The notes beneath the pieces were generated by a model. That model saw nothing but the letters and a program-made list of their open reading frames with translations, ran no database searches and was not told the origin of the DNA. A stretch of 32,000 nt of DNA from an uncultured Alphaproteobacteria bacterium (GTDB lineage Bacteria; Pseudomonadota; Alphaproteobacteria; Rs-D84): the NCBI GenBank assembly GCA_963931495.1, contig OZ007020.1, positions 870,001 through 902,000 of the forward strand, given 5' to 3'. Of this stretch, positions 9,847 to 31,470 are shown piece by piece (the stretch's first letter is position 1; every line of letters begins with the position of its first letter). The position numbers were made by a program, and so were the translations under genes.

Positions 9847-9863
9847 TACGTGTTCCTTTTTGG

Positions 9864-9895: not shown

Positions 9896-9899
9896 CTTT

Positions 9900-11174: not shown

Positions 11175-11197
11175 TTGAGTATCCTATATATGGGTAC

Positions 11198-11226
11198 ATT
11201 ATAGAGCAAAACAGACCGATTATCAA
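11198..11226 (-). promoter_or_regulatory. Near-consensus sigma70 promoter of the ATPase moron
   Basis: Minus strand: TTGATA (11221-11226), 17-nt spacer, TATAAT (11198-11203). AGGAT RBS precedes the ATG at 11174. Confidence 0.65.
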
Positions 11227-11259
11227 TAACATTATTCTATTTATAGGGTTTTTATTAGG

Positions 11260-11313
11260 CAATTTGCAGACATTTTACTATCCAATTTGTAGGTTTTTGC
11301 TAGTCAATTTGCA
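11260..11313 (+). promoter_or_regulatory. Three direct repeats CAATTTG(C/T)A spaced 22-23 bp (putative operator/activator sites)
   Basis: CAATTTGCA 11260-11268, CAATTTGTA 11283-11291, CAATTTGCA 11305-11313. They sit between two divergent promoters, and the third overlaps the -35 of the rightward one. Confidence 0.45.
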
Positions 11314-11343
11314 CCCCCCAATTCTTTAGAATATATTTCTATG

Positions 11344-11425
11344 TGCATATCGCGTGGTACGCACATAACTCGTTGATTTTACACCACAACAAACCACAAA
11401 TGCGTACCGTGCGTACCATTTTTTT
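11344..11425 (+). ncRNA. Candidate ~80-nt small RNA (promoter plus hairpin/T-run, no ORF)
   Basis: TTGCAC (11309-11314), 17 nt, TATATT (11332-11337). A 10-nt arm TGGTACGCAC (11355-11364) pairs with GTGCGTACCA (11409-11418), followed by T7 (11419-11425). An alternative partner TGCGTACC lies at 11401-11408. The ~44-nt loop is atypical for a terminator. Confidence 0.3.
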
Positions 11426-11496
11426 AACCCAGTGTCTAGCGAAGTGCTGCGCTCGCCGTTACCCTCGTTAGAAAAAAATCCCGACAGAACCTATTT

Positions 11497-12057
11497 TTAT
11501 GGGGTGATATTCTTTAAATTCTCGTCAAATATTCGTTGAAACTGTGTGGTTGCTATCTCTGTGCCAATTTCTAACATCTGCAACCTCTTCGGCACACGTG
11601 CAAAGTCTTTAAGATGGAATAGAATTTCCAAGCCTTTGCTATTTCTGTGTGCAATTACACGCTCCCCAGACCTTAGCCGCAATACAAATGATCCAGGAAC
11701 ATCTGTCTTTCTATTCGCCTTTAATTGACGTAAATCTGTATATTGTGGAACCGCAAGCCTACCTGATTTAGCAACACGACGCCCTCCCGTCTGTTGTAAA
11801 GTAGCAAAACCTGCCATAGTATATGTTTCTGTCTGCAATCTTTGTATAGTTGCCGGCCGTATCTTGATAGACTTTTCAAAATTTGGTTTACGCAGAACAA
11901 ACTGCTCATGTAAATGCTCTTTTACTCTTGATTGAATAATCTGTGATGTTTGGGTAAGGCTTTTGGCGGCAACAAATTTAACGTTCTTTTCACCAATGGC
12001 TAATAGGTGGCTGATTTTGCCATCGTTAAAAGTCAGTTTTATTACCGCCATAGCCAT
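11497..12057 (-). CDS. Hypothetical phage protein
   Basis: 186-aa ORF co-directional with the packaging genes. No family recognised. Confidence 0.5.
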   Translation of the reverse strand: MAMAVIKLTFNDGKISHLLAIGEKNVKFVAAKSLTQTSQIIQSRVKEHLHEQFVLRKPNFEKSIKIRPATIQRLQTETYTMAGFATLQQTGGRRVAKSGRLAVPQYTDLRQLKANRKTDVPGSFVLRLRSGERVIAHRNSKGLEILFHLKDFARVPKRLQMLEIGTEIATTQFQRIFDENLKNITP

Positions 12058-12079
12058 AAAAATACCGCCCGAAGGCGGT
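12058..12079 (-). terminator. Intrinsic terminator abutting the start of the 11497-12057 gene
   Basis: Minus strand: ACCGCC-UUCG-GGCGGU (plus coordinates 12064-12079), followed by AUUUUU and then the AUG at 12057. Confidence 0.6.
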
Positions 12080-12205
12080 TATACAGGAAGATTCAATTAT
12101 ATGAATTATCGTGCCATTTATTTCAAAAAGTGTAAAGTCCCATTTTTTTTCGTTTTTTGTATCTTGGTTGTTTTTGATTGTTTAGAATATATTTAACATA
12201 ATTTT

Positions 12206-12625
12206 TCAGGATATTTTTGTATCTAAAAACCGCAATTTATGTACAAGCTCTTCCACCGTATGTTGATACCTATGTGCCACAGTTTGTCTTGTTAAATGTG
12301 TTCTTTTCCCTATTTTTACCCATGAAACCCCACAAGATCGCAACCACAAAATACGTTTGTTTTTGCTATCTTCAATTAGTGGAAACCAGCGCAATACAAC
12401 CTCCTCCCATATTGATATTTGCCTATTTGTTGGTCGGAATATTTCTTCTGCCTGCCTTACTTCTTCTATATCCCACAACAACTCATACCACTCTCTTTTT
12501 ATATCCCACTGCTGTCCAGAAATTCCTCTACGATACACAGGAGGCAAGCTTTTATCCACTTTTACAGCGATATCTAACCACTCAAGAACTATTTCCTTTG
12601 TCCATTGTATCTGTTTTACTTGCAT
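12206..12625 (-). CDS. Putative HTH (sigma-70 region 4-like) regulator
   Basis: Start moved to the ATG at 12623-12625 (GGGGG RBS, 1 nt after the upstream stop). The C-terminal segment ILWLRSCGVSWVKIGKRTHLTRQTVAHRYQ looks like an HTH. Confidence 0.5.
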   Translation of the reverse strand: MQVKQIQWTKEIVLEWLDIAVKVDKSLPPVYRRGISGQQWDIKREWYELLWDIEEVRQAEEIFRPTNRQISIWEEVVLRWFPLIEDSKNKRILWLRSCGVSWVKIGKRTHLTRQTVAHRYQHTVEELVHKLRFLDTKIS

Positions 12626-12626
12626 G

Positions 12627-13211
12627 TCATACCCCCTGATTTTTTGTATAAAAAGAATTCTCTTTTTCAATCCATTGCACAATATTTATCATTTGAACCC
12701 ACTGACCATTTCTTTTCTTCTTCAAACTTTCTTCTGCTTTAATTACAACTGAAAGAGGAAACATTTCTAAAAAAGTCTTAAATGCTGGACGCATTTCTGA
12801 AATCCTTTCAAAAGAGAAATTATCGTCTATTTGAATTTCAAACGGCTTTTCAACATAGTTTTCAACAGGTTCAGACGAAATACCTCTTTCACTTCTTTTT
12901 ATTTCTTTTTCTTTTTTATTTTTTATTTCTTCTACATCTTCTATTACTCCTGAAATCATCTCTGATTTCATACCTGATTTCAAAGAAAGACCAAATGCGT
13001 TTTCTCTTTTATTCCGTATTTCTGCAATTCGGTCACATTTTTCTTTATATTTTTTTGCGTCTTCTGCTATTTGCTGTTTCATATATTTCCATATGCCTAA
13101 ATCACAATCACGGTCCGGATAACAGAAAATACAACGCAATAGTTCTGCACACTGAGCATCTGTTAAATCCTGAATCAAAACCGACAGCTTTGGATCTATT
13201 AGTATTTTCAT
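12627..13211 (-). CDS. Hypothetical early protein
   Basis: 194-aa ORF with a Lys/Glu-rich middle region. No family recognised with confidence. Confidence 0.5.
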   Translation of the reverse strand: MKILIDPKLSVLIQDLTDAQCAELLRCIFCYPDRDCDLGIWKYMKQQIAEDAKKYKEKCDRIAEIRNKRENAFGLSLKSGMKSEMISGVIEDVEEIKNKKEKEIKRSERGISSEPVENYVEKPFEIQIDDNFSFERISEMRPAFKTFLEMFPLSVVIKAEESLKKKRNGQWVQMINIVQWIEKENSFYTKNQGV

Positions 13212-13222
13212 TTCTATTTCCT

Positions 13223-13633
13223 TTAGTCAAACAAGCTTGGTTGTTTGCTTTGTTCCTGCCAATCTATACGATATTGCACACAATCTTTTATCTGACCTAT
13301 AAACACTAATTCTGAGCATTGCCTTATTACATTAGCATTCTTCGTAACTACGAATTGGGGGACCTGTATGCGTCCTTGTAAAAACCAAATACCATGATCT
13401 GTTATTTGCCATTCATTGTTGTTTGAGGTAGGAATTGCTAATCCGAAATATCTTAATTTTTGGAAGTTAGCAAACTGTGTGTTATTTAATCCCATTCCAT
13501 CTAACCTTGCTCGTCCTCCCAGCGCATTTAACCTATACAAACAGGAAATAAGTGTTTTATTTATGCTGTGTTTATATTCAACAGATTTATGTCCACAAGT
13601 GGGGCAAATGAATATATTATTTTTCATAGGCAC
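13223..13633 (-). CDS. Hypothetical protein with N-terminal CxxC element
   Basis: 136 aa. ICPTCGH near the N-terminus. Tight spacing to the neighbouring genes. Confidence 0.45.
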   Translation of the reverse strand: MPMKNNIFICPTCGHKSVEYKHSINKTLISCLYRLNALGGRARLDGMGLNNTQFANFQKLRYFGLAIPTSNNNEWQITDHGIWFLQGRIQVPQFVVTKNANVIRQCSELVFIGQIKDCVQYRIDWQEQSKQPSLFD

Positions 13634-13634
13634 C

Positions 13635-13859
13635 TCACTTATCTGAATCTATTTTTTTACCGGTGCCTTGAAACATACGACCGTTTTCATACTCTTTGAT
13701 CGCTTTAATTGGATATAAAACCTTTCCTCCAATCTTTACGTATGTTGGTCCAACACCAATTGAACGCCACTTCTGCAAAGTTGTTGTTTTAATACCCCAA
13801 TAATTAGCTAGTTCTATTTCCGACATCTTTTCAATGCTTTTTAAAGTATTTATTCGCAT
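13635..13859 (-). CDS. Small HTH DNA-binding protein (excisionase/MerR-like HTH_17 type)
   Basis: 74 aa. ELANYWGIKTTTLQKWRSIGVGPTYVKIGGKVLYPIKAIKEYE matches the AlpA/Xis-type HTH pattern. Confidence 0.6.
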   Translation of the reverse strand: MRINTLKSIEKMSEIELANYWGIKTTTLQKWRSIGVGPTYVKIGGKVLYPIKAIKEYENGRMFQGTGKKIDSDK

Positions 13860-14092
13860 AGAAAAACTCCATTTTTGAGTGATTTAACTATGCTTGAACT
13901 GTATTGAGATATTCGTTGTGTGTCGGTAGGGGCTATGCACGGAAATTGAGACGTGATTTTTACTAGTTTCTATTTTTTATTCGCAGGAAAACTCATCATG
14001 TGTGTCAAATGTATGGGGAATGTACGGAAGAAGAAAGGTCTATACGTATAAAAATATTGAAAACATGCTGTTTTTTTGGCTATTCTAAAAAT

Positions 14093-14311
14093 ATGAAATA
14101 CACAAAAGAGTATATCAGGGAAAAAATTGATGCGGCAATAGCTGAAAATCCAGATAGCCGATATGTTTTTATTACTTTAACAACCGAATGCCCCACACAT
14201 GAATATATTATTTCATATGATACAAATACAAGAACCGTTCATGCTGTTGTTGAAAAAATTGGCAAACATAGAAAAGTACCTCGTACTCTTTCTGATATTC
14301 TACGCAATTAA
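14093..14311 (+). CDS. Hypothetical protein (start uncertain; track ORF starts at GTG 14000)
   Basis: The only plus-strand ORF in the early region and divergent from the HTH gene. The ATG at 14093 (MKYTKEY...) or an upstream start are both possible. Confidence 0.3.
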   Translation: MKYTKEYIREKIDAAIAENPDSRYVFITLTTECPTHEYIISYDTNTRTVHAVVEKIGKHRKVPRTLSDILRN

Positions 14312-14965
14312 ATTTTTCTTGGGTCTATTAGCTAAATTCAGTCTATATTTTCCACTACCATTAGATAATACCAATCTTCGCCAGTATTTATTATGACTAA
14401 ATATACTTTGGATACGTTCACTACCAGAACCAATATCAGAAAGTATATGTTTGCCATATACCCAAGGCACTCCATCTTGATATGCTTTCCAAAGTCTTTC
14501 TAATACCTTTGCCTGCATTACACCAAAAGTATATTCCTGTCCATTAAACAATACACAAGTGAAGTCCTTTGATAGCAATTTAAACGTATTTCTAACTGTG
14601 TTTAAGCATCTATTTTCAAATGCCTCAACATCTGTAATGGGGATTACCAAATCACAAAATTCCACAGATATATCTATGTTATACTCATCAAAATTTCTTA
14701 CCTTAACACCGACATCCCTACTTTTAAATAACAAGTAGACATCTCGATGATCTATTTGTCTGTGGCTTAAATTTTCTAATATATTTTTATATCGTTTTCT
14801 ATCGGAAAAAATTCTTTCTAAAGCGATCTCAAGAACTACGGGGCGAACAAAAAAGCGAATTTCTTTCAACTCCGCTAAAGCTTGTATAATATTCAAACTA
14901 CATTGCCATCTGTCTTGTAATGTTAAAACATCCAAGAATTCCAGAGGAAATTTTAACTTCGTCAT
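14300..14965 (-). CDS. Hypothetical protein
   Basis: Start moved to the ATG at 14963-14965 (AGAGAGGA RBS). 221 aa. No family recognised. Confidence 0.5.
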   Translation of the reverse strand: MTKLKFPLEFLDVLTLQDRWQCSLNIIQALAELKEIRFFVRPVVLEIALERIFSDRKRYKNILENLSHRQIDHRDVYLLFKSRDVGVKVRNFDEYNIDISVEFCDLVIPITDVEAFENRCLNTVRNTFKLLSKDFTCVLFNGQEYTFGVMQAKVLERLWKAYQDGVPWVYGKHILSDIGSGSERIQSIFSHNKYWRRLVLSNGSGKYRLNLANRPKKNLIA

Positions 14966-15074
14966 TATTCCTCTCTTTATCCCAAAAGAAGAAAGGAGCC
15001 GCATAGCGAGCTCCTTTCTTTCCTTTCTTGTTCATTATATAATAGTTTCTATCAATATCAACAGGAAAGAAAAC

Positions 15075-15374
15075 CTAATTCTTACAATGGGTTATCTTAT
15101 ATTCAGCACCTTGATCTGTGATATAAATTACTATCCTGTATATTTTAGAATTCAACATTATTTTTATGTTTATTTTTTTTATATCTTCCCCTATTCTGAC
15201 ATATTGGAATCCGTTGGCTCTGCAACAATCTTTGACTGCTTTTTTATAGCTCTTGGGGTCTTCGCCTAACGGTTCTTCTCGCCAGCGTTTAATCATTGGG
15301 TAGCAAATATTTATAACACGACACATTCCCTCATAAACCTCAACCCAGTTTTTGTTATTTATCATTTCTGCCAC
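15075..15374 (-). CDS. Hypothetical protein
   Basis: 99-aa ORF in the co-directional early gene string. Confidence 0.4.
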   Translation of the reverse strand: MAEMINNKNWVEVYEGMCRVINICYPMIKRWREEPLGEDPKSYKKAVKDCCRANGFQYVRIGEDIKKINIKIMLNSKIYRIVIYITDQGAEYKITHCKN

Positions 15375-15383
15375 ATCTACCCC

Positions 15384-15614
15384 TTATGCCCCGAAAACAC
15401 GATCTGAACCAATTATTTCCTTAGGTATTTCATAGCCGATTTTACGTAACAACTTTATGATTTCTTTTTCTGTACGTCCTTGTTCATACCAACACCACGC
15501 TGTACTTTCCGTTACATATTTTTCGCCTATTGCCTTACATATTGCTTGTATTCCTCTATCTGTTGTTAACTCACGCAGTAACGCTGATTCATACACATTT
15601 TTTGCTTGTTTCAT
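15384..15614 (-). CDS. Hypothetical protein
   Basis: 76-aa ORF in the co-directional early gene string. Confidence 0.4.
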   Translation of the reverse strand: MKQAKNVYESALLRELTTDRGIQAICKAIGEKYVTESTAWCWYEQGRTEKEIIKLLRKIGYEIPKEIIGSDRVFGA

Positions 15615-15717
15615 GTTCTATTCCTTTTTATTTGTTTCTTTACAACGCACAAACTACTGAAAGAAACACATAAGTCCAGCGAATAAAGCATAATCGCCGA
15701 ATAAAACTGATTTTTCC

Positions 15718-15957
15718 TTATTCTTTAAACAATATACCAAACCAATCGGCCATTACTTTTAAACGCTCTTTATAATTTTTTCCGTCTAATTCTGCATTGA
15801 ATTGTTTGCGTTCATCCGCATCTAATTGGAGTCTTTGCATAAGCCTGTTACATAAACCCATAAGGTAGAAAATATTTCCCTCTGGCCCAGATAAATTTAT
15901 AACTATTCCTGTCGGATACTTTGCATTATATTGCATCTGCTGGCTTGTCGAATACAT
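15718..15957 (-). CDS. Hypothetical protein (79 aa)
   Basis: Start moved to the ATG at 15955-15957 (AAAGGTGA RBS). The longer track ORF would overlap the upstream gene by about 160 nt. Confidence 0.4.
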   Translation of the reverse strand: MYSTSQQMQYNAKYPTGIVINLSGPEGNIFYLMGLCNRLMQRLQLDADERKQFNAELDGKNYKERLKVMADWFGILFKE

Positions 15958-16489
15958 AATGATCACCTTTATTAAATTCACATTTTTGTTGTAAATACGC
16001 CCACATTTTTTCAAGGTCGTTTGCCGTTGTAAATTCTGAATACAACCAGGTTTCTGGATCTTTCCAGACAGGGTCTTTTTCACAATTTAGTAATTGCTTT
16101 ATTTCTTTTTGAACATCTTCTCTAACTAATACAGCTTTGATTGCTGTTCTATACAGATACGCAGAATCTATTGGTAGTTTTGGTCTTGTCACCCCGTAAT
16201 ACCATGACCACCAATCACTAAGCTTGATCTTATTTAACATTGCTATACGCATCATTAACAGTCCCAAATTGAAATCTCCGGCCACATCTACTAACGAGTC
16301 AGCAAAATGCCTTCCATATCTTGAGTTCAAGAAATCTACTATTTCTTCTTCTGTCTTTTCTGGATACAGCCCTTTAATTCGCTTAAGTGCTAACATCCAT
16401 ATATTCCGTGTTATTTTTTCTGTTTCTGCATATATTTTAATTGTTCCCCAGAAACCGAACTTTTTGTTTATCTCTATATTTTTACTCAT
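15926..16489 (-). CDS. Hypothetical protein
   Basis: 187-aa ORF, the first gene downstream of the integrase on the minus strand. Confidence 0.45.
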   Translation of the reverse strand: MSKNIEINKKFGFWGTIKIYAETEKITRNIWMLALKRIKGLYPEKTEEEIVDFLNSRYGRHFADSLVDVAGDFNLGLLMMRIAMLNKIKLSDWWSWYYGVTRPKLPIDSAYLYRTAIKAVLVREDVQKEIKQLLNCEKDPVWKDPETWLYSEFTTANDLEKMWAYLQQKCEFNKGDHYVFDKPADAI

Positions 16490-16564
16490 GTTTTCCTCTT
16501 CTTTTATGCAACAACATACCCGAACAAACTCTTAAGTCCAGAGAATAAGAATCACACCATGCAA

Positions 16565-17788
16565 CTATCCGCATATTGCACTTGCAACATTGTTCACGGC
16601 TATAAAAGTCGCTTTATCCGATAAATGTGTATATCCCTCAGTCGTAGTGATTCTACTGTGTCCTGCAGCATCTCGCATTGCTATCATGTTTTGACCAGTA
16701 TTAGCCCCCATAGTTATAAATGAGTGTCGCAAATCGTGTATTCTCATATGAGGCAAATTTGCCTCTTTTAATACCCAATTAAACGCCTTTCTAATATCCT
16801 GTAATGATTGATTTGGATTTAAAATACTTGGGAAAACGTACTTACTATTCAAAACCTTTGCCTCTCTTATGGACATTTCCAATACTGGAATCACCGCATC
16901 ACAAAGCTTTACATCCCTTGCACCAGTTTTGCTATCGTGCAGGTGTATTATTTTTTCATCTAGCGCAACATCATCTATCAACAAGTCTGTTATTTCTCTA
17001 CATCTGCAACCAGTTAAAGCCAATACTTTTATAGCTCTAAATATTCGTGGATGCGATTTCCCTTTTGTTGGACCTTCTTCTAATGCTTTAAAGAATGCTT
17101 TATATCCTGCTGCATCTAATATTTGTGGTTTAAACTTTTCGTTTGAACCTTTACGAACATATACACACGGATTTGATTTCCTAGGGACATACTTATATGC
17201 CTCACACCAATCCCAGAAACTAGACATCAAAGACAATGCTTTATTTGCTGTAGAAAACGATGTTTTTTCTGCCCACAATGCATACGCATCAAGAATATGC
17301 CCCTCTTCTATTTCATCCATGTACATTTGACCGAATACCGGTTTTAAATACAATCTTAATTGATCCCAATTACTTTTTTGTGTGCGAGGTTTCTTATACA
17401 ATTTAGAATATTTTTCCATATAAAGGTTAAATGCATCTAAGAATAAATATCTTTTCTCTTGCTCCAGCACCTGTTGCTTAACGCTATCAGCATTTATCGT
17501 ATCAGACACACAGCCATCTATTATTTGTCTTTTTATCGCATTCGCTTTTCTCTTTACATCTTCAACGGTTTCATAGTCGCACATTCTTCCTAAGAATATG
17601 TTTCTACGTTTCATTGACGGTTTTAAAACACAGCCAAGGTAAAAGCTCACATTATCTGTTAGTTTAGAATATCTTAAATACAGACCAGGAATTGTACCAT
17701 CTGTTATCTGCATAAACTTATCGCCATGCAATTTTTTTATCCAGGTATCTTTAAACACCCTTTTTTTACATATCCATTTTTCTGCCAT
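16565..17788 (-). CDS. int: Tyrosine integrase, P4-type
   Basis: 407 aa. C-terminal catalytic block HDLRHSF...AAGHSRITTTEGYTH (R..HxxR..H..Y). The N-terminal arm-binding-like region (GLYLRYSKLTDNVSFYL) is typical of P4-type integrases. Confidence 0.9.
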   Translation of the reverse strand: MAEKWICKKRVFKDTWIKKLHGDKFMQITDGTIPGLYLRYSKLTDNVSFYLGCVLKPSMKRRNIFLGRMCDYETVEDVKRKANAIKRQIIDGCVSDTINADSVKQQVLEQEKRYLFLDAFNLYMEKYSKLYKKPRTQKSNWDQLRLYLKPVFGQMYMDEIEEGHILDAYALWAEKTSFSTANKALSLMSSFWDWCEAYKYVPRKSNPCVYVRKGSNEKFKPQILDAAGYKAFFKALEEGPTKGKSHPRIFRAIKVLALTGCRCREITDLLIDDVALDEKIIHLHDSKTGARDVKLCDAVIPVLEMSIREAKVLNSKYVFPSILNPNQSLQDIRKAFNWVLKEANLPHMRIHDLRHSFITMGANTGQNMIAMRDAAGHSRITTTEGYTHLSDKATFIAVNNVASAICG

Positions 17789-17856
17789 TTTGCCACCTCT
17801 TCAAAACAAACAATGCCGGTAAAAAATATAATATCCAGAGAAAAGAACACATAGCC

Positions 17857-18033
17857 CTATACCTTGTTCTCTTCAATCCAATCTTTAATATCTTGCAATC
17901 GGTATCTGACAACTCTACCCAATTTTATAAAGTGCGGCCCCTTACCTTGAAGCCGATATTTTATGAGTGTATATTTTGCAATTCCTAATAATTCGGAAAG
18001 CTCTTTTGTTGTTAATAATTTTTCTTCTGCCAT
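17857..18033 (-). CDS. AlpA/Xis-like HTH protein (58 aa, below the ORF-track cutoff)
   Basis: Own translation: MAEEKLLTTKELSELLGIAKYTLIKYRLQGKGPHFIKLGRVVRYRLQDIKDWIEENKV. Classic AlpA/excisionase HTH pattern. Sits between the att-like site and int. Confidence 0.75.
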   Translation of the reverse strand: MAEEKLLTTKELSELLGIAKYTLIKYRLQGKGPHFIKLGRVVRYRLQDIKDWIEENKV

Positions 18034-18345
18034 AAAATGTCCTTTTGACTATACGTTCAAAACATATCTTTAAGACATCTTTTTGGCTATTCAGAAATAT
18101 CTAGTTTTATCCAATTTTATCAAACAAGATTTCTTAATTCATAATTTCGAAATTCCAGTATATATACGCAGTATATATACTAAAAAACTTGTTTCTTTGG
18201 ATTTTGGTTGCTTTTGATTGCTTTAAAAACTTTGAACAAAAACACACAGAAACACATAGAAATAGTACACAGCCGATGTCACGACAAACAAAAATTCCAA
18301 GTTTTCTGCGGGATTCAGCCATTTTTGAAACAACGGTACAATTCC

Positions 18346-18390
18346 CTGTTAATCCGTATGTCACTGGTTCGAGTCCAGTTGCCCGAGCCA
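18346..18390 (+). other. tRNA 3'-half-like segment (T-arm, acceptor 3' strand, CCA); not a complete tRNA
   Basis: ACTGG-TTCGAGT-CCAGT T-arm, then TGCCCGA-G-CCA. No complementary 5' acceptor strand or D-arm is found upstream, so it is interpreted as an att core. Confidence 0.65.
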
Positions 18391-18396
18391 AGATTT

Positions 18397-18420
18397 CCGC
18401 AGATTTCTGCGGATTTTTTT
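18397..18420 (+). terminator. Intrinsic terminator after the tRNA-like core
   Basis: CCGCAG-ATTT-CTGCGG followed by ATTTTTTT. The same element occurs at 23274-23296. Confidence 0.7.
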
Positions 18421-18489
18421 ATTGTCTATCGGAAGTCCTATTTTTGGCAAAATTGGATAAAAATGGCTCTAAATTGCCCTAGTTATAAA

Positions 18490-18777
18490 ACAAAAACACA
18501 TATTTGACACACAGTAATATATACCATTACTGCTGAAATCATCTCTGAAATCACATAGATTTCATACTTGAAATCAGAGATGAAATCGTGATGAAATCAT
18601 ACCTGATTTCAGTATGATTTCAGGGCTGATTTCAGTATTGATTTCATACCTGAAAAGAGCCCCTTTTTGCCTGCGAACTATGGAACGCTATTCCGTCAGT
18701 CACAAGACTAAAACACACAAAAATCAAACAGTTATAAAAATACGATTTTCCCCTATGTGTCAAATATGTGTTTTTGT
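18490..18777. repeat. 22-bp perfect inverted repeats enclosing ten 8-mer iterons (TGAAATCA / TGATTTCA)
   Basis: IR-L ACAAAAACACATATTTGACACA is at 18490-18511, and its exact reverse complement is at 18756-18777. Forward iterons start at 18534, 18546, 18569, 18581 and 18592. Reverse iterons start at 18557 (1 mismatch), 18604, 18615, 18627 and 18639. Spacing is 11-12 bp. Confidence 0.85.
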
Positions 18778-18856
18778 ACTTTTTTATTTTTGAATAAACA
18801 ACTGGACAAAGACGAAAGAATAAGCACAAATGCAACAACTTTTAAAGGGGTTGCAT

Positions 18857-19063
18857 ATGAGCTTCAAACATTTTGATGATATTAAACCAAATGATAAGGC
18901 ACAATTTGAGATGCTGTATTTCTCTGCTCAACGGGCTTTAAGAAGGTTGGAACTTAAACTGAATAAAATTTATGGCGATAAAACGCCAAAACATTTGCGT
19001 ATAGAATTAAAACAACTCAACCGCAAACTCACCCAAATGGCAGGTGCGTGGAAATGTACATAA
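18857..19063 (+). CDS. Small helical hypothetical protein (68 aa)
   Basis: ATG at 18857 with an AAGGGG RBS. A frameshifted paralogue lies at 26240-26460. Confidence 0.5.
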   Translation: MSFKHFDDIKPNDKAQFEMLYFSAQRALRRLELKLNKIYGDKTPKHLRIELKQLNRKLTQMAGAWKCT

Positions 19064-19080
19064 AAACAAAGAATTCTCCA

Positions 19081-19575
19081 CTATAATGGATTCACTATAT
19101 CCAAAATTTTTTCTAGAATACCCAAAATGTTATTATAATCACTATTTATACACATTTTAAACACCCCCTTGTTGGCTTCATAATCATCATTTAAATGTGC
19201 TATTGAATCCCTAAAGTTAATAAAATTTATATATACATCCCATTCACCAGAATTTACTAAACCTTCAAAAGCTTTCTTCTTACGAAAAGTATCTTTAATT
19301 ATGCTCGACAAGTTGTTTTTATTTAAATGGCCATGAAGTTGTTTTTTGCTATTTTTACTAAGTGTACTTAAATAACGCTTAGAAAATGCCGAAGATTTAT
19401 CTAAACGGTTCCCTATAATAGTATTGAGCTTTTTCTCAAATTCTGCATAACACGTAATGACTATATAGTCCACAATCATATCACCAAACTTCATAAAATC
19501 TGCTGGATTTAACGCAACTTGTATCGAGCTACAATCATTTACATGCAATCTTGAAACTTCCAATTTATTTGTCAT
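19081..19575 (-). CDS. HEPN-like protein (Rx4H motif), partner of the DUF262 protein
   Basis: 164 aa, all-helical in character. Contains FRDSIAH (R-x4-H). Start overlaps the DUF262 gene stop by 11 nt. I recall HEPN-like families that neighbour DUF262 genes, but this is not verified here. Confidence 0.45.
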   Translation of the reverse strand: MTNKLEVSRLHVNDCSSIQVALNPADFMKFGDMIVDYIVITCYAEFEKKLNTIIGNRLDKSSAFSKRYLSTLSKNSKKQLHGHLNKNNLSSIIKDTFRKKKAFEGLVNSGEWDVYINFINFRDSIAHLNDDYEANKGVFKMCINSDYNNILGILEKILDIVNPL

Positions 19576-20692
19576 TTACTATGACCTCATAAGCTAACTT
19601 TAAACGATATTCTACCTTGCTTAATGACGTAGTACCAGAAAGATCGTTATAGACTTCTTTGGCCTTTTCGGAATTTTTATAGCTAATAATCTTACTTTTT
19701 AAAGTTTCATTTGGAACATGAGTTATATGTAACAGCGCATTCATAATCGAATCAAATATTAAATAATTCATTCTTTTTGAAGATTTCATATTAAAAATAT
19801 TACTTGTTTCGTCATCAAAAGCGCTTACAAGCCCACCACAAATATTTACAAATCTGTTTTCAAAATCTTTAAACTCTTTATTTTTATTATGAGCCATAAA
19901 AGCATCTAAAAATTGTCTCATATTATTATAGTTATATAATTTTAGTTCTTTAGTATTAAAATTCTCGTATAAAGCTAAAACACGTAAAATCAGCTCCAGG
20001 TCAAAAAATCTTTCATTTTCTTTCGGCTGACCGAAAATTTTTCTCCAATTTTCGTCTTTATTTAACCTCTCTAACATATCCACCAACTTTCCAGAACTTA
20101 TTGCTCGCCTTATCTCCATTGCTTTCAATGCGACACTACTAGTATTTATGCGTTCAAATACATTATATAAAAATGTATCATCTTTAGGCTCTATAGCTCT
20201 TATTATCATAGCACTTAAAAATGTGTTATTCTCCAACCTATTTTTGTATTTTTCTAATTCCCCTGTTAATTGTTTAAACTTTTTTCCACTCAAAATAGAA
20301 TCGTTTTTTAATAACAAAGAAAATTTATTATTAAAAAAATCCGATATTGTATTCAGCCGTTGCCAACCATCAACCACCCAATATCCCTCATCTTTAGGCA
20401 ATTGATATAGCATAATTGGTGGGACGGGATACCCCTTTAAAAAAGATTCTATTAAACGGCTTTTGGTTTTAGTGTTCCATATAGAATTTCTTTGAAAAAT
20501 TGGTTTTTTAAAAACTGTTTTAAATTTTGAATTGTATTCATTTATACTAAATGTCGCTATATTTGTAACAATATCTATATCTAAATTATCTGCTGAAACA
20601 GGTTCTTCTTCCAAATCTTCGAATTCTAAAGCAACGTCAACAAGTTCCTTAACCTTTTGGTCTTCATTGAAATTTTCAAAACTTTCTGTCAT
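19565..20692 (-). CDS. DUF262 (ParB-like, GmrS-type) domain protein lacking a DUF1524 nuclease domain
   Basis: 375 aa. IFQRNSIWNTKTKSRLIESFLKGYPVPPIML...VVDGWQRLNTI matches the DUF262 signature (FQR..VW......LI.S.l.g.P.P...........DGqQRl.t). No HNH/His-Me motif is seen in the C-terminal half. Confidence 0.75.
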   Translation of the reverse strand: MTESFENFNEDQKVKELVDVALEFEDLEEEPVSADNLDIDIVTNIATFSINEYNSKFKTVFKKPIFQRNSIWNTKTKSRLIESFLKGYPVPPIMLYQLPKDEGYWVVDGWQRLNTISDFFNNKFSLLLKNDSILSGKKFKQLTGELEKYKNRLENNTFLSAMIIRAIEPKDDTFLYNVFERINTSSVALKAMEIRRAISSGKLVDMLERLNKDENWRKIFGQPKENERFFDLELILRVLALYENFNTKELKLYNYNNMRQFLDAFMAHNKNKEFKDFENRFVNICGGLVSAFDDETSNIFNMKSSKRMNYLIFDSIMNALLHITHVPNETLKSKIISYKNSEKAKEVYNDLSGTTSLSKVEYRLKLAYEVIVNDK

Positions 20693-20753
20693 TATATAAA
20701 CTCCTCAATATGTTAGCATTATTCTTCATCTTTATACATATATCATCTATATG

Positions 20754-21290
20754 TTATTTCGGAACCGGCAATCCTAACCTTTGTAATGGTATGTATTCAA
20801 AATAATACGAACAACCAACAGACACAATGTAATCCAATACATCCTTATAACAAGACTGTTTAAACCAATCGCTTAATAAATAAATGTATTCAACTTCCAT
20901 GTTTAGCTGTGCTAGTAACTTTTTATACTGCTTCTTCTTAAAATCGCATGTTTGCAACTTTTCATCGACAGAACCCGCAACCTGTTGAAATTTGCACTCT
21001 ATAACAAAAAAAGTGTTATTTGCTACTACATATATAGAGTCATCAGGTAATAATTTTTTTGATAAAATACTTTGCCATTTAATGCCACGATACGTTAAAA
21101 ATTTATACAAAGCGTTTTTCTTAAAGATCGAGGCAACCTCAACACCATTGTACGAAACAGAAACCCATCCCCTTTCATCATCGATACACTCGTAGCCCTT
21201 TTGAAGACACAGAAATGTACGTAGGTCCGTTTTCCCCTCAAAAACCAATCCTGTTTTAGTATTTGCACCGCCTATTCCATTAGCTTTCAT
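20754..21290 (-). CDS. Putative type II restriction endonuclease (PD-ExK)
   Basis: 178 aa. LLPDDSIYVV...FFVIECKFQ gives PD...E-x-K. The start ATG overlaps the upstream methylase stop (TAATG). It sits at the third position of an M-M-R operon. It does not resemble R.DpnII as I remember it. Confidence 0.6.
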   Translation of the reverse strand: MKANGIGGANTKTGLVFEGKTDLRTFLCLQKGYECIDDERGWVSVSYNGVEVASIFKKNALYKFLTYRGIKWQSILSKKLLPDDSIYVVANNTFFVIECKFQQVAGSVDEKLQTCDFKKKQYKKLLAQLNMEVEYIYLLSDWFKQSCYKDVLDYIVSVGCSYYFEYIPLQRLGLPVPK

Positions 21291-22075
21291 TATACTATTC
21301 CTTTCTTTTTAAGGATATCATACAGCCTTTTTTCTGCCAATTCAACAAATTGCGCTTCCTGCTCTATGCCGACAAACATTCTGTCATATTTTAATGCCGC
21401 AACCCCAGTTGTCCCACTGCCCATAAATGGGTCTAATATTAAATCGCCTGGATTTGTACAACATAAAATAATTCTTTCCAATAAGTCCAATGGCTTTTGT
21501 GTAGGATGCCTGCCAAAAGTTTTTTCTGATTTTGACGGCGTTGGAATAGACCAAACACTGCGCATCTGACAATCCGGCTTTTTCAAAATATCTTTTGGAA
21601 ATGCACCGCATTTCATAGCATTGTAATTAAATATATGCTTTGCGTTCTTACTTTTTCTTGCCCAAATAAGTGTTTCATGGCTGGCAGTAAAGTATCTACA
21701 AGACATATTTGGACTGGCATTTGGTTTATACCACGCCACATCATTTAATATATGAAAGCCCAACAACTGCATTGCAAAGCCACATGAGTATATACTGTGG
21801 TATGTACCACTTATCCAAATTGTGCCATTGGGTTTTAACACTCTCCGACATGCGGAAAGCCACTTTTTATGAAACTCAAAATCATTCATCAACCCGTGCG
21901 ACTCGTCCCACTTACCTTTATTAACCGACACAACTTGACCATTTTGGCACGTTATACCCCCATTTGACAACATATAAGGCGGATCCGCAAAAATCATATC
22001 AAAGGTATTTTCTGGAATCTGTTCCAGACACGTTAAGCAATTTTCACAATAAAGACGGAAGGGTTTATTAGTCAT
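21290..22075 (-). CDS. N6-adenine DNA methyltransferase, DpnA (M2.DpnII)-like, beta class
   Basis: 261 aa. FADPPYMLSNGG...VVSVNKGKWD...KPNGTIWISG...HPTQKP...LDPFMGSGTTGVAA closely parallels DpnA along the whole length. Confidence 0.85.
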   Translation of the reverse strand: MTNKPFRLYCENCLTCLEQIPENTFDMIFADPPYMLSNGGITCQNGQVVSVNKGKWDESHGLMNDFEFHKKWLSACRRVLKPNGTIWISGTYHSIYSCGFAMQLLGFHILNDVAWYKPNASPNMSCRYFTASHETLIWARKSKNAKHIFNYNAMKCGAFPKDILKKPDCQMRSVWSIPTPSKSEKTFGRHPTQKPLDLLERIILCCTNPGDLILDPFMGSGTTGVAALKYDRMFVGIEQEAQFVELAEKRLYDILKKKGIV

Positions 22076-23000
22076 AATTAGTTATCAATAACTCACGAAT
22101 AGCACTACGACCATCTGCATTTGCGTTTATCAGACGTTTTGCAAGTATTCTGTTTATATTATAGTCTTGGTATAAATCATCAAAAAATGTATCGTTTACA
22201 TAATTTGTTGGGTCTGAATTACTTAACATCTGTAAAGCACCCGCTTTATCACACGCTTCAAAAACGTTCTTAAGGCGAATTTGCTCATCATCATTAAAAT
22301 CCCCAACAGCATAAGAATTAAACGAAGATGTTTTTCTAATCGGGCGATATGGTGGGTCGTAATAGATAAACGTATCTTTTTTTACATACTCTTGAACAGA
22401 ACTAAAATCTGTTTGGATTATTGTCGCAATCTGTAAAGCGTCTGATACATTACGCAAATTTTCTGCATCTAATATTCTTGGATTGGTGTACTTACCCATC
22501 GGAACATTAAACATATTTTTTGAATTAACACGAAATAAGCCATTAAAACAGGTTCGGTTTAAGAATATGGTCAACGCTGCACGTCTGATAAACCGCTGAT
22601 TATAAATATTTGCATCGACAGTTTTGTCCATGCTGTTATATTCATCACGCCTTGTATAGTAATATTCTTTTTTATCTTCTGTATGATTGTACTCTGTACT
22701 TATTTTTGTCAGTTCAACTATCAATTTTTCAACATCATTTTTGATAACATTATACAGAATAACCAGCTCAGGATTGATATCAAACAATAAGGCTTCTTGT
22801 ATTTTGTAGTTATTATAAATATCAAAGAATACAGCCCCACCACCGACGAATGGTTCTATATATCTTTTTATTCCGCCCATTTTCAATTTTAAGGGCAGTT
22901 TTTCATCGATTTTATCTAATAGTTGCCCCTTGCCACCTGCCCATTTTAATACAGGTTTGCACTCAATATAATCAGCTAATTTTGCCGGTAGTGGTGACAA
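22068..23000 (-). CDS. Dam-family (D12 class) N6-adenine DNA methyltransferase, DpnM-like
   Basis: 310 aa. LKWAGGKGQLL, EPFVGGGAVFF and YYDPPY. Probable TTG start at 23000 behind AGGAAAGGAAAGA. An 8-nt overlap joins it to the next gene. Confidence 0.85.
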   Translation of the reverse strand: MSPLPAKLADYIECKPVLKWAGGKGQLLDKIDEKLPLKLKMGGIKRYIEPFVGGGAVFFDIYNNYKIQEALLFDINPELVILYNVIKNDVEKLIVELTKISTEYNHTEDKKEYYYTRRDEYNSMDKTVDANIYNQRFIRRAALTIFLNRTCFNGLFRVNSKNMFNVPMGKYTNPRILDAENLRNVSDALQIATIIQTDFSSVQEYVKKDTFIYYDPPYRPIRKTSSFNSYAVGDFNDDEQIRLKNVFEACDKAGALQMLSNSDPTNYVNDTFFDDLYQDYNINRILAKRLINANADGRSAIRELLITNYD

Positions 23001-23083
23001 TCTTTCCTTTCCTTTACGATTTGATATTACAAAATCACGCCACCTAAATCCAGTAGTAATTTTTTACTTATAGTTGTTTTTAA

Positions 23084-23296
23084 TTGCTTTTGATTGCTTT
23101 AAAAACTTTGAACAAAAACACACAGAAACACATAGAAATAGTACATAGCCCATGTAACCGCAAATAAAAAATCCAAGTTTTCTGCGGATTTCAGCCGTTT
23201 TTGAAAAATTTGTACAATTCACTGTTAATCCGTATGTCACTGGTTCGAGTCCAGTTGCCCGAGCCACGAATTTCCGCAGATTTCTGCGGATTTTTT
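23084..23296 (+). repeat. 213-bp direct repeat, copy B (att-like, with tRNA 3'-half-like core 23222-23266 and terminator 23274-23296)
   Basis: See copy A. The core CTGTTAATCCGTATGTCACTGGTTCGAGTCCAGTTGCCCGAGCCA is identical in both copies. Confidence 0.9.
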
Positions 23297-23418
23297 AATA
23301 CTTTTTTTAATTTAACATTTTTAACAAAACCCCTACATTGTTCGTAAAACTGTCAGAAAGTTCGTTAGAAAAACATATATTTTCATACGGGATACACATA
23401 TGTTTTTTTAATTATCAC

Positions 23419-23447
23419 TTGAACAATCTCTGAATGTAAAATATAAT
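23419..23447 (+). promoter_or_regulatory. Near-consensus sigma70 promoter for the metK-like gene
   Basis: TTGAAC (23419-23424), 17 nt, TATAAT (23442-23447). Confidence 0.65.
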
Positions 23448-23457
23448 AGAAAACATT

Positions 23458-23622
23458 AAAGGTGGATTTAACCTGACTTGTCCTACCTCTAAATGGACTA
23501 AACAAGGAGTTGTTATATGCAAATTTTCCTATACTTTATGCCGCATTTTGCACAGTGCTTTTGCACCTGTGTTGGTAGCTACATGAATCCACCTTTGGTT
23601 CTTACTGCAAAAACCAAAGGAG
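23458..23622 (+). promoter_or_regulatory. Structured 5' leader with mutually exclusive helices (long-range P1 versus SD-sequestering hairpin)
   Basis: AAAGGTGGATT (23458-23468) is perfectly complementary to AATCCACCTTT (23586-23596). CCTTTGGTT (23592-23600) is perfectly complementary to AACCAAAGG (23612-23620), which contains the metK SD (AAGGAG 23617-23622). The two helices share CCTTT. Confidence 0.55.
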
Positions 23623-23672
23623 TATATTATGCAAAGAACAGCAGAAGCGGTGTCTTTGGGACATCCAGATAA
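23517..23672 (+). CDS. Candidate leader peptide (51 aa uORF) overlapping the metK-like start
   Basis: AAGGAG (23504-23509), 7 nt, ATG. Peptide is MQIFLYFMPHFAQCFCTCVGSYMNPPLVLTAKTKGVYYAKNSRSGVFGTSR. The Pro-Pro codons (23589-23594) lie on the switch sequence. Confidence 0.35.
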   Translation: MQIFLYFMPHFAQCFCTCVGSYMNPPLVLTAKTKGVYYAKNSRSGVFGTSR

Positions 23673-24639
23673 AATCGCCGATTACATTTCAAGTTATATC
23701 TTAGATCGGTTAATTGAGCAAGATCCACAGGTCAAATATGCCGTTGAAGTCTTAATAAAAGATAACAATGTCGTCCTTGGTGGCGAAGTTACCACCTCTG
23801 CCCCACTTGGTAATTTGACCGACTATGTTAAGGCCGCCATTGCCGAAATCGGGTACAATGACCGATACGCATCAATATGGGGCGATTTGGCCATTAACCC
23901 AGCGCAAATAAAGGTTACCAATTTAATTGGCGTACAATCCGCAGATATCAATCGTGGTGTTGTTGCCGATGGCTGGGGCGATCAAGGTGTGTTTGTTGGC
24001 TATGCCTGCCAAGGCGAAGGTAAGATAAATCGGGAATTATATTTGGCCCGAAAGCTGAACAAAGCCCTGTACGATAAAGCCCGTCAATCTGATAATCTCG
24101 GCATAGATATCAAGACACAAATCACATTGAACGACGACAAGATTGAAACCACTATTGTGGCAATCCCGATGTTAAAGGACGAAGACCTGACCGACTTTAT
24201 CATTGAAACATTGGGCGAAAAGCCAGCGCACATTATCATAAATGGTACTGGACGTTATACATATCATGGTTCCATAGCAGACTGTGGCATTACAGGACGA
24301 AAATTGGCATGTGACTTTTATTCAACCGCATGTCCGATTGGTGGTGGCAGTCCATGGACAAAAGATGCTAGCAAGGCAGATTTAACCCTTAATGTGTATG
24401 CCCGTATCTTGGCGTGCGAGAACTTGGCCGACAACGACGAATGTTTTGTTTACCTGTCTTCGTGCATTGGGCGTGCCGAACTGCCAAGCGGCCTGATAAA
24501 AACGGTTAAAAACAGCATTGTTTCCTATCGTGATCTGTGGTGCAATCACAAACCAAGTAACTTGATAAAAGCATACGGTTTAGATAAACCGATCTATGCA
24601 AAATTATGCGACAAAAGTATATCTGGAATACAGAATTAA
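23629..24639 (+). CDS. metK: Compact S-adenosylmethionine synthetase (MetK) homologue, 336 aa
   Basis: GHPDKIADYIS, GGEVTTS, GDQGV.VGYA, DIKTQIT, NGTGRY, ADCGITGRKL, GGGS and TKDASKADL all align with the E. coli MetK catalytic blocks. It is about 50 aa shorter than bacterial MetK. Confidence 0.8.
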   Translation: MQRTAEAVSLGHPDKIADYISSYILDRLIEQDPQVKYAVEVLIKDNNVVLGGEVTTSAPLGNLTDYVKAAIAEIGYNDRYASIWGDLAINPAQIKVTNLIGVQSADINRGVVADGWGDQGVFVGYACQGEGKINRELYLARKLNKALYDKARQSDNLGIDIKTQITLNDDKIETTIVAIPMLKDEDLTDFIIETLGEKPAHIIINGTGRYTYHGSIADCGITGRKLACDFYSTACPIGGGSPWTKDASKADLTLNVYARILACENLADNDECFVYLSSCIGRAELPSGLIKTVKNSIVSYRDLWCNHKPSNLIKAYGLDKPIYAKLCDKSISGIQN

Positions 24640-26117: not shown

Positions 26118-26239
26118 TTTGTCCCCTTTTGTTCCAAATTACCAAAAAATTGAAAAACAAGCAATATCCTTTAGTTACAACAAATGACTGGGCAAGTGAC
26201 GAAAGATTATGCCAAATACGACAACCTTAAAAGGATTGT

Positions 26240-26460
26240 CTATGAAGTACAAACATTTTTGAGAAATTGAGCCCAGTAATAAGGCGGATTTTATTATGCT
26301 TTATTTCGCAGCATGCCGATCATTACACGAGTTGGAGCTATCCGCAGAACAAACAACGGCAACCTAACATGCCGGCAGACATGGTTGCTCCGCCGCATCC
26401 AGCACAAGTTGACACAGATGTCAAGTTATTACAAGTCCATATTTTCGTGACCAACAACTA
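26240..26460 (+). pseudogene. Frameshifted paralogue of the 18857-19063 small gene
   Basis: MKYKHF then a stop. The +1 frame continues EIEPSNKADFIMLYFAACRSLHELELS, against MSFKHFDDIKPNDKAQFEMLYFSAQRALRRLELK in the intact copy. An extra T in the CATTTTT run explains the shift. Confidence 0.6.
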
Positions 26461-29943: not shown

Positions 29944-31470
29944 TGCTATCGCCAGCAATAATATCCAAACACGTTGCAGACACCACAAATCTAGGATGTA
30001 ATTCAACCTGGGTTGATTTATAGGATGTTTACAATTACTACACCGGTATCTGTAACTAGGGCGCAACAATACAGAAACCTGACGCGCACGCCATAAAATA
30101 TGGGTGCGATTCAACCATAGGTTGTATATTTTCATATTCACAATTATTGTAACGGCATATGCAAACATATTTACATCAGTGCCATAAAACGGTGAAAACA
30201 CTATAAAATCGGGCCGTAATTCAACCTAGGGTTGAACAAAACGATGTTTGTATCCGGTAAGTCGTTATCTGTAATAATATGTAAAATATGCTACGTGCAC
30301 CGCAAAATGTGAACATAATTCAACCATAGGTTGAATTTTGCGATGCTTGTAATTCGTAAATCGGCATTTATAATTGGGGTATAATAACTCAAAACATGCT
30401 GCACACACTATAAAACATAGATGCAATTCAACCCCAGGTTAAATGCTGTAATGTTTACGATTGACGCGCTATCGCCAGCAAGAATATCAAAACACGTTGC
30501 AGACGTTATAAATCTGGGACGCAATTCAACTATGGGTTGAACGTTGCGTTATTCACAACTGACGAACAGCCGTCAGCAACAATACAAAATATGGTGTATA
30601 TACCGTAAAACATGGGCGAGATTCAATCATAGGTTGTATATCGTCATATTCACAATTACTGCGCCGACATCTATAACCAGGGCATAACAATGCAAAAAAC
30701 ATGGCGCATAGGCTATAAAACATGGGTGCGATTCAACCACAGGTTGAACGACATCATATCAACAATCAGCATACTGTTGCATATAATAATATTAAAACTC
30801 CTTATAGACATTGTAAATCGTGGGTACGATTCAACCTAAGGTTGAACAAAACGATGTTCGCAACTGGTAATTCGGCGCCTGTAATAATATATAAAATATG
30901 CTGCACACACTATAAAACATAGACGCAATTCAACCCCAGGTTAAATGCTGTAATGTTTACGATTGACGCGCTATCGCCAGCAAGAATATCAAAACACGTT
31001 GCAGACGTTATAAATCTGGGACGCAATTCAACTATGGGTTGAACGTTGCGTTATTCACAACTGACGAACAGCCGTCAGCAACAATACAAAATATGGTGTA
31101 TATACCGTAAAACATGGGCGAGATTCAATCATAGGTTGTATATCGTCATATTCACAATTACTGCGCCGACATCTATAACCAGGGCATAACAATGCAAAAA
31201 ACATGGCGCATAGGCTATAAAACATGGGTGCGATTCAACCACAGGTTGAACGACATCATATCAACAATCAGCATACTGTTGCATATAATAATATTAAAAC
31301 TCCTTATAGACATTGTAAATCGTGGGTACGATTCAACCTAAGGTTGAATTATGTAAGTTTTACGATTAGTGTCCCATCGCCTGTCGCAACATCAAAACAC
31401 GCTGCACGCACGATAAACCATGGGTGTAATTCAACCATAGGTTGAATATCAATGTTTTTTACAATCGTTA
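29944..31470. repeat. Array of 15 diverged ~100-bp tandem units, each with the palindrome TTCAACC-N3-GGTTGAA; includes a 502-bp-period secondary duplication
   Basis: Palindromes start at 30002, 30110, 30220, 30319, 30427, 30525, 30622, 30732, 30830, 30929, 31027, 31124, 31234, 31332 and 31430. Block 30396-30846 matches 30898-31348 with 1 mismatch. Confidence 0.9.

Follow-up and report, generated by a model that had tools for sequence, protein, structure and literature searches.

The question raised by this locus is whether a set of bacterial defence genes that carries no recombinase of its own, and that lies between two long direct repeats beside a prophage, is a mobile unit, and which enzyme might move it. 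The locus was studied in a window of 32,000 nucleotides (the whole stretch of DNA that was analysed), corresponding to positions 870,001 to 902,000 of contig OZ007020.1 (assembly GCA_963931495.1) from an uncultured alphaproteobacterium; coordinates given below are those of the window, and related sequences compared with it are cited by handles beginning with L. An initial annotation, prepared from the sequence alone, had interpreted the DNA between the repeats as a cis-mobilisable element (CIME) accreted at an attachment (att) site next to the prophage, and this interpretation is supported by comparison with related genomes. The best explanation, to which a probability of about 0.72 is assigned, is that the repeats are attachment sites resulting from successive site-specific integrations into tRNA-Asn(GTT), and that the segment between them, hereafter the cassette, is a non-autonomous, phage-linked element.

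The direct repeats and the tRNA-Asn gene

The two direct repeats of 219 bp, copy A (18202-18420) and copy B (23078-23296), are approximately 91% identical (17 mismatches over 189 columns, counted as far as the CCA end, and one 1-nt indel), and their homology reaches slightly further left than the bounds first assigned to them. They had initially been described as aligning without gaps at about 92% identity; the position and the level of identity hold, but one gap is needed because copy B has an extra base just past CCA (GCCA-AGA vs GCCACGA), which shifts the spacing between the copies from 4876 to 4877 nt. The remainder of that description is borne out by the alignment, namely the direct orientation of the copies, a 62-nt block (18208-18269 = 23084-23145) and a 45-nt core (18346-18390 = 23222-23266) that are both free of mismatches, and a common terminator composed of the hairpin TCCGCAGATTTCTGCGGA and a T-run. 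One 34-nt stretch of the core is present two times in the window, compared to 0.00 occurrences expected from shuffled sequences. No complete tRNA was called in the window, in agreement with the earlier view that neither copy is a full tRNA. No Rfam family was detected at the gathering threshold in the whole window, and searches of positions 18000-23500 at E-values up to 10 returned chance-level matches only.

Each repeat is composed of three parts, all read on the + strand: an element-derived P arm of 144 nt, the 45-nt tRNA segment and the tRNA's own terminator. In copy A, the P arm (18202-18345), which includes the 62-nt block, constitutes the right end of the prophage and is absent from the related locus L138, where a complete tRNA with a host promoter is found instead. 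The core of copy A (18346-18390) corresponds to positions 32-76 of tRNA-Asn(GTT), from the anticodon loop to CCA, and begins at the nucleotide where homology with L138 breaks; it is followed by the native terminator (18391-18420), identified by a terminator scan, whose hairpin also follows complete tRNA-Asn genes in many genomes. In copy B, the P arm (23078-23221), with a 62-nt block identical to that of copy A, is the right end of the cassette, the core (23222-23266) again spans tRNA-Asn positions 32-76 and marks the beginning of homology with the complete-tRNA loci L064 and L092, and the terminator (23267-23296) has the same hairpin. The P arm of copy A contains tandem TTGYTTTTRA units at 18205-18223 and tandem ACACAYAG motifs at 18242 and 18252. 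The latter motif occurs 10 times in the window compared to 1.4 expected; each P arm has two of these copies in tandem at a distance of 10 nt, and another lies in the P' arm at the left end of the cassette, a layout that fits candidate arm-type integrase sites.

As a separate observation, a third instance of the P-arm edge motif, TGGTTGYTTTTGATTGYTT, was located at 12165-12183 (+) in an intergenic region of the phage. The match near 12165 that had been noted earlier is therefore real, with 0 mismatches to the degenerate pattern and 0 occurrences expected. At the edges of the P arms, 10-nt units of this type are repeated in tandem two or three times, and the motif at 12165-12183 may be a candidate binding site for a phage protein.

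The core reproduces the 3' part of a host tRNA. The order of its elements is CTGTTAA, TCCGT, the variable loop, the T arm, the acceptor strand TGCCCGA, G and CCA, equivalent to tRNA positions 32-76 with the anticodon GTT, and a megablast search of the core against phage records matched only annotated tRNA-Asn genes (35 nt at 100%). When species-representative genomes were scanned with the last 25 nt of the core, at least 119 stretches were retrieved, nearly all of them from gut or rumen metagenome-assembled genomes named Candidatus Enterousia, uncultured Alphaproteobacteria or Rickettsiales. At least 84 of these sites were called complete tRNA-Asn(GTT) genes by ARAGORN, and at least 37 others are fragments. 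The complete tRNA-Asn(GTT) genes of Candidatus Enterousia and related gut Alphaproteobacteria end in exactly the 45-mer, as anticipated if the core derives from a host tRNA, and in every fragment inspected the identity to the gene begins at CTGTTAA, the start of the anticodon loop. The hairpin and T-run also follow the CCA of complete tRNA-Asn genes, and therefore represent the gene's own terminator. This is the pattern of an att site located at the anticodon loop, with identity extending from the loop to the 3' end and a complete tRNA at the other junction (L129, L138).

Comparison with relatives, which had been proposed as a check, identifies the repeats as recombination end points; neither of the two outcomes named in the initial annotation as refuting its interpretation was observed. 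In L138, which was found via the exact DUF262 protein, the cassette is 99.66% identical to window positions 22804-18346 and occurs without the phage; it is preceded by LigA, a short-chain dehydrogenase (adh_short) and a complete tRNA-Asn, and its homology with the window stops exactly at 18346. On the other side, in L064 and L092 a complete tRNA-Asn runs uninterrupted into the right flank of copy B and MetK, with homology from 23221/23222 onwards; the flank itself (23297-23628, +), which leads toward a MetK-like gene, is contiguous with the complete tRNA-Asn in both loci (88% in L064, 85% in L092). Hence on both sides the homology breaks fall at the start of the core, as in attL and attR direct repeats produced by site-specific recombination. 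The same phage was also found in a 57-kb IMG/VR contig, one part of which (L128) is 98-99% identical to window positions 5169-18033. The other end of this contig (L129) carries a complete tRNA-Asn with a host-type promoter, the terminator, the P' arm, four TGAAATCA iterons and genes of the phage arm, so that this viral contig supplies the complete tRNA that had been predicted to lie to the left, beyond the window. Two contigs match the layout of the window and have hifiasm/Canu-style names, their long-read origin being assumed from the names alone.

The homology breaks and the left end seen in L129 together give the order complete tRNA, phage, copy A, cassette, copy B and older flank, as proposed for successive accretion at one att site; the occurrence of the cassette without the phage in L138 agrees with it. 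Compared with L138, the phage is, on this homology, a later arrival at an intact tRNA.

The prophage, its integrase and the phage-type ends of the cassette

The DNA to the left of copy A encodes a tailed prophage with a Mu-gpT-like capsid protein, an S49 protease, a lambda-type portal and a GpA-type terminase, and no function could be assigned to its early genes from the scans. Next to copy A lie the genes for a tyrosine integrase of 407 aa (16565-17788, -; Pfam Phage_integrase 1.3e-20, Phage_int_M, SAM_3), which is proposed as the trans-acting recombinase, and for an excisionase-type helix-turn-helix protein of 58 aa (17857-18033, -; Pfam HTH_17 3.3e-13), which scores 23.8 bits against TIGR01764 'excise', under the cut-off of 28.8. 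The integrase had been labelled P4-type, a designation that is not sustained by a P4-type N-terminal domain or a subfamily match: no P4-type arm-binding domain was found in the 407-aa protein with Pfam, and PRK09692 (CP4-57-type) matched with E = 0.042 and 12.5 bits compared to a cut-off of 434.

Both ends of the cassette match the phage. The left end, or P' arm (18421-18533, +), was recognized by its similarity to the sequence that follows tRNA-Asn elsewhere and contains GACACACAG at 18506-18514. It is 88-96% identical to the sequence directly after tRNA-Asn genes or fragments in L109, L117, L129 (the phage left end), L138, L139, L143 and others, and the cassette core plus P' arm is 91.7% identical to the phage left end in L129 over 206 columns. 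At the right end, the cassette carries the same type of P arm as the prophage. The type of P arm tracks the lineage of the integrase: an 85.5% identical integrase (L148) is accompanied by the same arm, and integrases that are 47-60% identical are associated with other arms having their own tandem motifs, or with a full tRNA. The att sites of the cassette are thus related to those of the neighbouring element that encodes an integrase, as in a CIME.

In five of the more distant relatives (L080, L066, L090, L123 and L038, with integrases 49-59% identical), the xis and int genes adjoin a complete tRNA-Asn with a distinct promoter, TTGACTTGTGCGGATTTT...TATATTATAT, an arrangement that suggests phages carrying a full tRNA-Asn gene at attP. 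A derivation of the P arm from a decayed phage-borne promoter and tRNA 5' half was also considered, after a resemblance noted by eye to relatives with a full tRNA beside xis, and is not supported (local alignment against shuffled sequences, z <=2.6; best match 8 nt).

The P' arm is followed by the iterons (18534-18646, +), detected by motif count as four direct and four inverted copies of TGAAATCA at a spacing of about 12 nt. The iterons reported in the initial annotation are hence real, with 8 copies in this interval and 12 in the window compared to 2.7 expected. The first iteron is located 188-189 nt from the start of the core in the window, L129, L139 and L143. Three further TGAAATCA iterons with 12-nt spacing (12951-12982) are found inside a phage gene for a protein of 194 aa (12627-13211, -), beside a very A+T-rich run, and the homologue of this gene in L080 contains different iterons with equal 12-nt spacing. 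It is proposed that 12951-12982 could be the phage origin or an initiator-binding site. The layout may be likened to that of phage lambda, in which the origin lies within the initiator gene O. The cassette neighbouring the L080 phage lacks that phage's iterons; therefore the iteron link holds only for the window-type phage and cassettes.

Two other features of the prophage were recorded. The gene at 9900-11174 encodes an AAA_14/DUF4143 protein for which a match to the candidate defence family PDC-S01 was obtained (2e-61), and that at 8530-9846 encodes a fusion of ParB with an N6/N4 methylase. A tandem repeat with a period of 66 nt (5495-5824; four overlapping 132-nt copies, about five units) is situated in an open reading frame (ORF) at 5483-5950 (-), between the portal and terminase genes.

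Cassette content and the cassette family

The 4.7 kb between the copies contain six genes and, as had been described, only cargo: iterons, a small gene, a DUF262 gene, and a nuclease with two methylases were found in the scans. No recombinase, integrase, excisionase or transfer gene was detected among the six ORFs with Pfam and PADLOC, or with PHROGs (two ORFs) and NCBIfam (three ORFs), and this absence is a property shared with CIMEs. With respect to the traits of phage satellites, the cassette has iterons only, with no integrase, replication initiator or primase, or packaging-redirection gene of its own. The first gene, c68 (18857-19063, +), encodes a two-helix protein of 68 aa, its start being set by the ribosome-binding site AAAGGGG (model predicted local distance difference test score, pLDDT, 82.5). 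It is preceded by a conserved leader (18785-18856, +) with the hairpin GCAAC-N13-GTTGC around the ribosome-binding site, for which compensatory changes are observed in relatives (GCAAC..GTTGC vs GACAA..TTGTC).

The remaining genes are on the - strand. A DUF262 (GmrSD_N) defence protein of the NsnA / PD-T4-2_A type (19565-20692; Pfam 1.8e-23; PADLOC NsnA 6.2e-54, PD-T4-2_A 7.3e-40) is accompanied by a partner of 164 aa (19081-19575), whose gene has an 11-nt overlap with the upstream gene. With regard to a possible PD-T4-2/Nsn-type system, the A component is strongly matched and the overlapping partner is without a profile match, to HEPN or any other family; the HEPN label previously given to it lacks profile support, although an RDSIAH motif is seen by eye. 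Upstream are a PD-(D/E)XK nuclease, presumably a restriction enzyme (20754-21290; Pfam PDDEXK_11 1.7e-6), an N6/N4 DNA methyltransferase (21290-22075; Pfam 1.7e-59; PADLOC MTase_II 2.3e-98) and a Dam-type (D12) N6-adenine methyltransferase (22068-23000; Pfam 1.3e-60; PADLOC MTase_II 1.3e-90). These three genes are read as a restriction system with two methylases.

The cassette belongs to a recurrent family, as the P' arm, iterons, leader and small gene follow tRNA-Asn or its fragments in many genomes. Homologues of c68 were identified downstream and on the same strand at 26 of 90 tRNA-Asn sites (among the matches listed, with at least 1 kb of sequence), the distance being 280-620 nt in most cases, and by this distribution c68 is the hallmark gene of the family. 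Four other members, all without a recombinase and bounded by tRNA-Asn or a fragment of it, carry different cargo: an 8.6-kb cassette with two TIR proteins, E2-CBASS, AIPR, DpnII and the same two methylases (L139/L042; P arm 93%); an 8.8-kb cassette with a type IIG restriction enzyme and a TIR protein, which adjoins a related phage (L148); a 5.1-kb cassette with c68 and two methylase-like matches, where no homologue of the window integrase was found by tblastn (L072); and one with a reverse transcriptase, a C5 methylase and EcoO109I (L143/L144). A P arm at 88-94% identity closes the cassettes of L139/L042, L144, L148 and L149, and a truncated P arm without the core is present in L143. Host genes flank the L139 cassette to the left and right, and there is no phage within 10 kb of it. 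The order of the host locus is conserved (PBP, OMP, LigA, adh_short, tRNA-Asn), and when L138 is compared with L139 the nucleotide identity is 87-94% for the cassette parts and 74% for the host LigA/adh_short region, which points to horizontal spread of cassette parts between species.

The leader is duplicated around extra cargo in L139, L150 and L143. Approximately 50 nt of leader, ACTGGACAAAGACGAAAGAATAAGCACAAATGCAA (window 18785-18857), occur on both sides of cargo inserted upstream of c68, at 7460-7508 and 10018-10091 in L139 (TIR and E2 genes) and at 8230-8282 and 9956-10031 in L143 (reverse transcriptase).

To the right of copy B, the window contains a divergent MetK-like gene, a SocA/Panacea pair, an Eco57I-type methylase and a 100-nt repeat array. 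In L057/L127 (MetK 97.5% identical), the MetK segment and a c68 cassette stand in the opposite order to that in the window. The MetK-like gene (23629-24639) scores 171.6 against the NCBIfam metK cut-off of 309.4; in some relatives (L043, L057/L088 and L127 were compared) it lies between a complete tRNA-Asn and a fragment, and is therefore att-bounded, and in others it diverges from the tRNA. A second c68-type locus at 26179-26440 shares the leader and hairpin but has TGA as its seventh codon and no att core nearby, and is probably a pseudogene that marks an older, decayed cassette to the right of MetK. The array at 29945-31460 comprises about 14 units of 98-110 nt, located upstream of and overlapping the start of the Eco57I-type methylase gene. 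Its unit contains the hairpin ATTCAACC-NNN-GGTTGAAY and has no Rfam match; a 502-nt internal duplication is 99% identical, and the length of the array varies among contigs of one population, from 971 nt in L152 to about 1473 nt in L151 and about 1506 nt in L156.

Proposed mechanism, rival explanations and known systems

The cassette is best described as a phage-linked variant of a CIME, and its activity is a prediction from comparative data. In the preferred explanation, the crossover lies within the 45-nt tRNA segment, and copy A serves both as the right end of a prophage of about 57 kb and as the left junction of the cassette, with copy B being the right junction of the cassette with the older chromosomal flank. 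The cassette retains the P' arm and iterons of phage type on its left and the P arm of phage type on its right. According to the proposed mechanism, if the phage integrase and excisionase acted on copies A and B, a circle of 4.88 kb bearing an entire attP-like site (P arm B, core, P' arm) would be released and the phage would be left joined to the old flank, and recombination of the complete tRNA at the far left with copy B would excise the phage and cassette together. The circle could then re-enter any tRNA-Asn site or the attP of the phage, and the iterons, being common to the presumed initiator gene of the phage, might permit the phage to replicate it.

Several observations weigh against this account. 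The left end of the prophage was read in a related sample and not in the window's own contig. In the same population neither an excised circle nor an empty site nor a variant without the cassette was seen, and in a look-up by the exact MetK protein every long contig with this protein carries the cassette. Scans with the P-arm block gave 0 matches, both among viral contigs and among JGI metagenome contigs, the scan with the P'-arm block gave 0 matches in metagenome contigs, and no excision-junction contig emerged from the collection scans or the MetK look-up. In the variable part (18270-18345), P arm B shows 15 differences from P arm A, which could weaken binding. No family was found for c68 in four libraries, and a fold search of the PDB gave only generic helical matches (E >2). 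Likewise, the 194-aa phage protein has no family match and no solved relative, so its reading as an initiator draws on the iterons in its gene in two phages. Finally, the contig NODE_1009 (L002/L133), with 4x coverage, joins the right end of the cassette to the left arm of the phage. Its second repeat is a mosaic of B-type, A-type and phage-type sequence with switches inside shared blocks of at least 60 nt, and the MetK flank in the same sample sits on a contig ending at the core. NODE_1009 was considered as evidence for a co-excised circle or a tandem phage, but on account of this mosaic it is probably a graph mis-path at 4x coverage, a real co-excised or tandem form being less likely.

The lack of an excision product or a cassette-less variant in the population would also be consistent with an inert scar, in which the cassette is a decayed remnant, the repeats are fossils used by no integrase and the defence genes are fixed content of the island. 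The decay of elements in tRNA islands is well documented (bioRxiv 10.1101/2020.12.28.424599), and signs of it are seen in the c68 pseudogene nearby and in the truncated, coreless P arm of L143. However, both arms and the core of the cassette are intact, with perfect runs of 62 and 45 nt, the same ends are retained at 88-94% around different cargo in distant genomes whose host flanks are 74% identical, and the matching integrase lineage adjoins the cassette; an inert scar is thus considered unlikely. It is far less probable that the cassette is a part of the phage genome, with cargo between duplicated attP sites and the true end of the prophage at copy B. The connection in NODE_1009 and the contiguity of int-xis, the att site and c68 in several relatives could be read in this way, but the cassette occurs without the phage in L138, cassettes of the family are flanked by host genes on both sides with no phage within 10 kb (L139), the repeat of NODE_1009 switches type inside shared blocks, and 7 kb of the phage left arm in L129 are without c68.

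A third alternative, that the 213-bp unit first delimited is a multi-copy non-coding RNA gene that resembles a tRNA 3' half by chance, would account for the terminator and the perfectly conserved 62-nt block of the unit, but is close to refuted. No Rfam family matches it, its + strand showed no internal promoter-like site, the core has exactly the sequence of host tRNA-Asn, and each copy is positioned at an element junction. Stable pairing is confined to the T arm and the terminator, and the repeat was rejected as a structured RNA because its fold z-score is -0.21.

Within the preferred explanation of phage-linked att sites, it can be speculated, against the odds as we see them, that the c68 cassettes are dedicated minimal phage-dependent elements rather than products of decay. 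Such elements would consist of cis sites (both attP arms and the initiator iterons) and one small gene, would depend on a single temperate phage lineage for integrase, excisionase and replication, and would act as defence carriers between species of uncultured gut Alphaproteobacteria, with extra cargo taken up at a second fixed site marked by the duplicated 50-nt leader. If the preferred explanation is true, anti-phage genes travel in units without their own mobility enzyme in an uncultured, genome-reduced gut lineage. If the dependence is real, the resident phage would decide which defence cassettes a cell gains or loses, and tRNA-Asn in this clade would be a shared docking site for a pool of cassettes. 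The exact junction sequences can serve as queries against long-read data that already exist, which makes mobilisation in trans testable without cultivation.

Among known systems, the closest are the CIMEs that adjoin ICESt1/ICESt3 in Streptococcus thermophilus (Pavlovic 2004 and Bellanger 2011, as described in PMC5704250), for which the working definition given in that account is the loss of integration genes with retention of attL and attR. The cassette resembles the CIMEs described there in possessing attL and attR without integration genes, in its tandem arrangement with an autonomous element encoding the cognate tyrosine integrase, and in its accretion at the 3' part of a conserved gene. 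Unlike the integrative conjugative or mobilizable partner of those CIMEs, the partner here is a temperate phage, recognized as a tailed prophage by its terminase, portal and capsid genes, and no conjugation genes were seen in it. The target is also different, being the anticodon loop of tRNA-Asn, and the cassette is one of a recurrent family in which c68, leader and iterons form a conserved core and the defence cargo is swappable, with mobilisation in the present case inferred.

Tycheposons in Prochlorococcus build tRNA-proximal islands (bioRxiv 10.1101/2020.12.28.424599). Similar to these islands, repeated integration at the tRNA has pushed older elements inward, with scattered partial tRNAs, degenerated elements and cargo of defence or adaptive genes. 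However, active tycheposons have their own recombinase and the degenerated fragments have no clear boundaries, whereas the cassettes described here have no recombinase and possess sharp arms matching a phage.

The cassette is also comparable to phage satellites in being a small element beside a helper phage, with common cis-acting sites and anti-phage genes. To our knowledge, the known phage satellites (PICI, P4-like, PLE, PICMI) carry an integrase gene and, in most cases, a replication module and genes that redirect packaging, whereas the cassette has no integrase, replication or packaging genes. Variable defence hotspots inside P2 and P4-like elements were reportedly described by Rousset et al. 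in 2022, and share with the cassette a fixed position near the att end of a temperate element and fast-changing defence systems; in contrast to these hotspots, where the cargo is inside an autonomous element, the cassette is a unit of its own between att sites and is found in L138 without the phage. Among the papers found on Candidatus Enterousia, none describes the cassette. Hitch-hiking elements of this kind are known, and the host and the form in which one is seen here are new.

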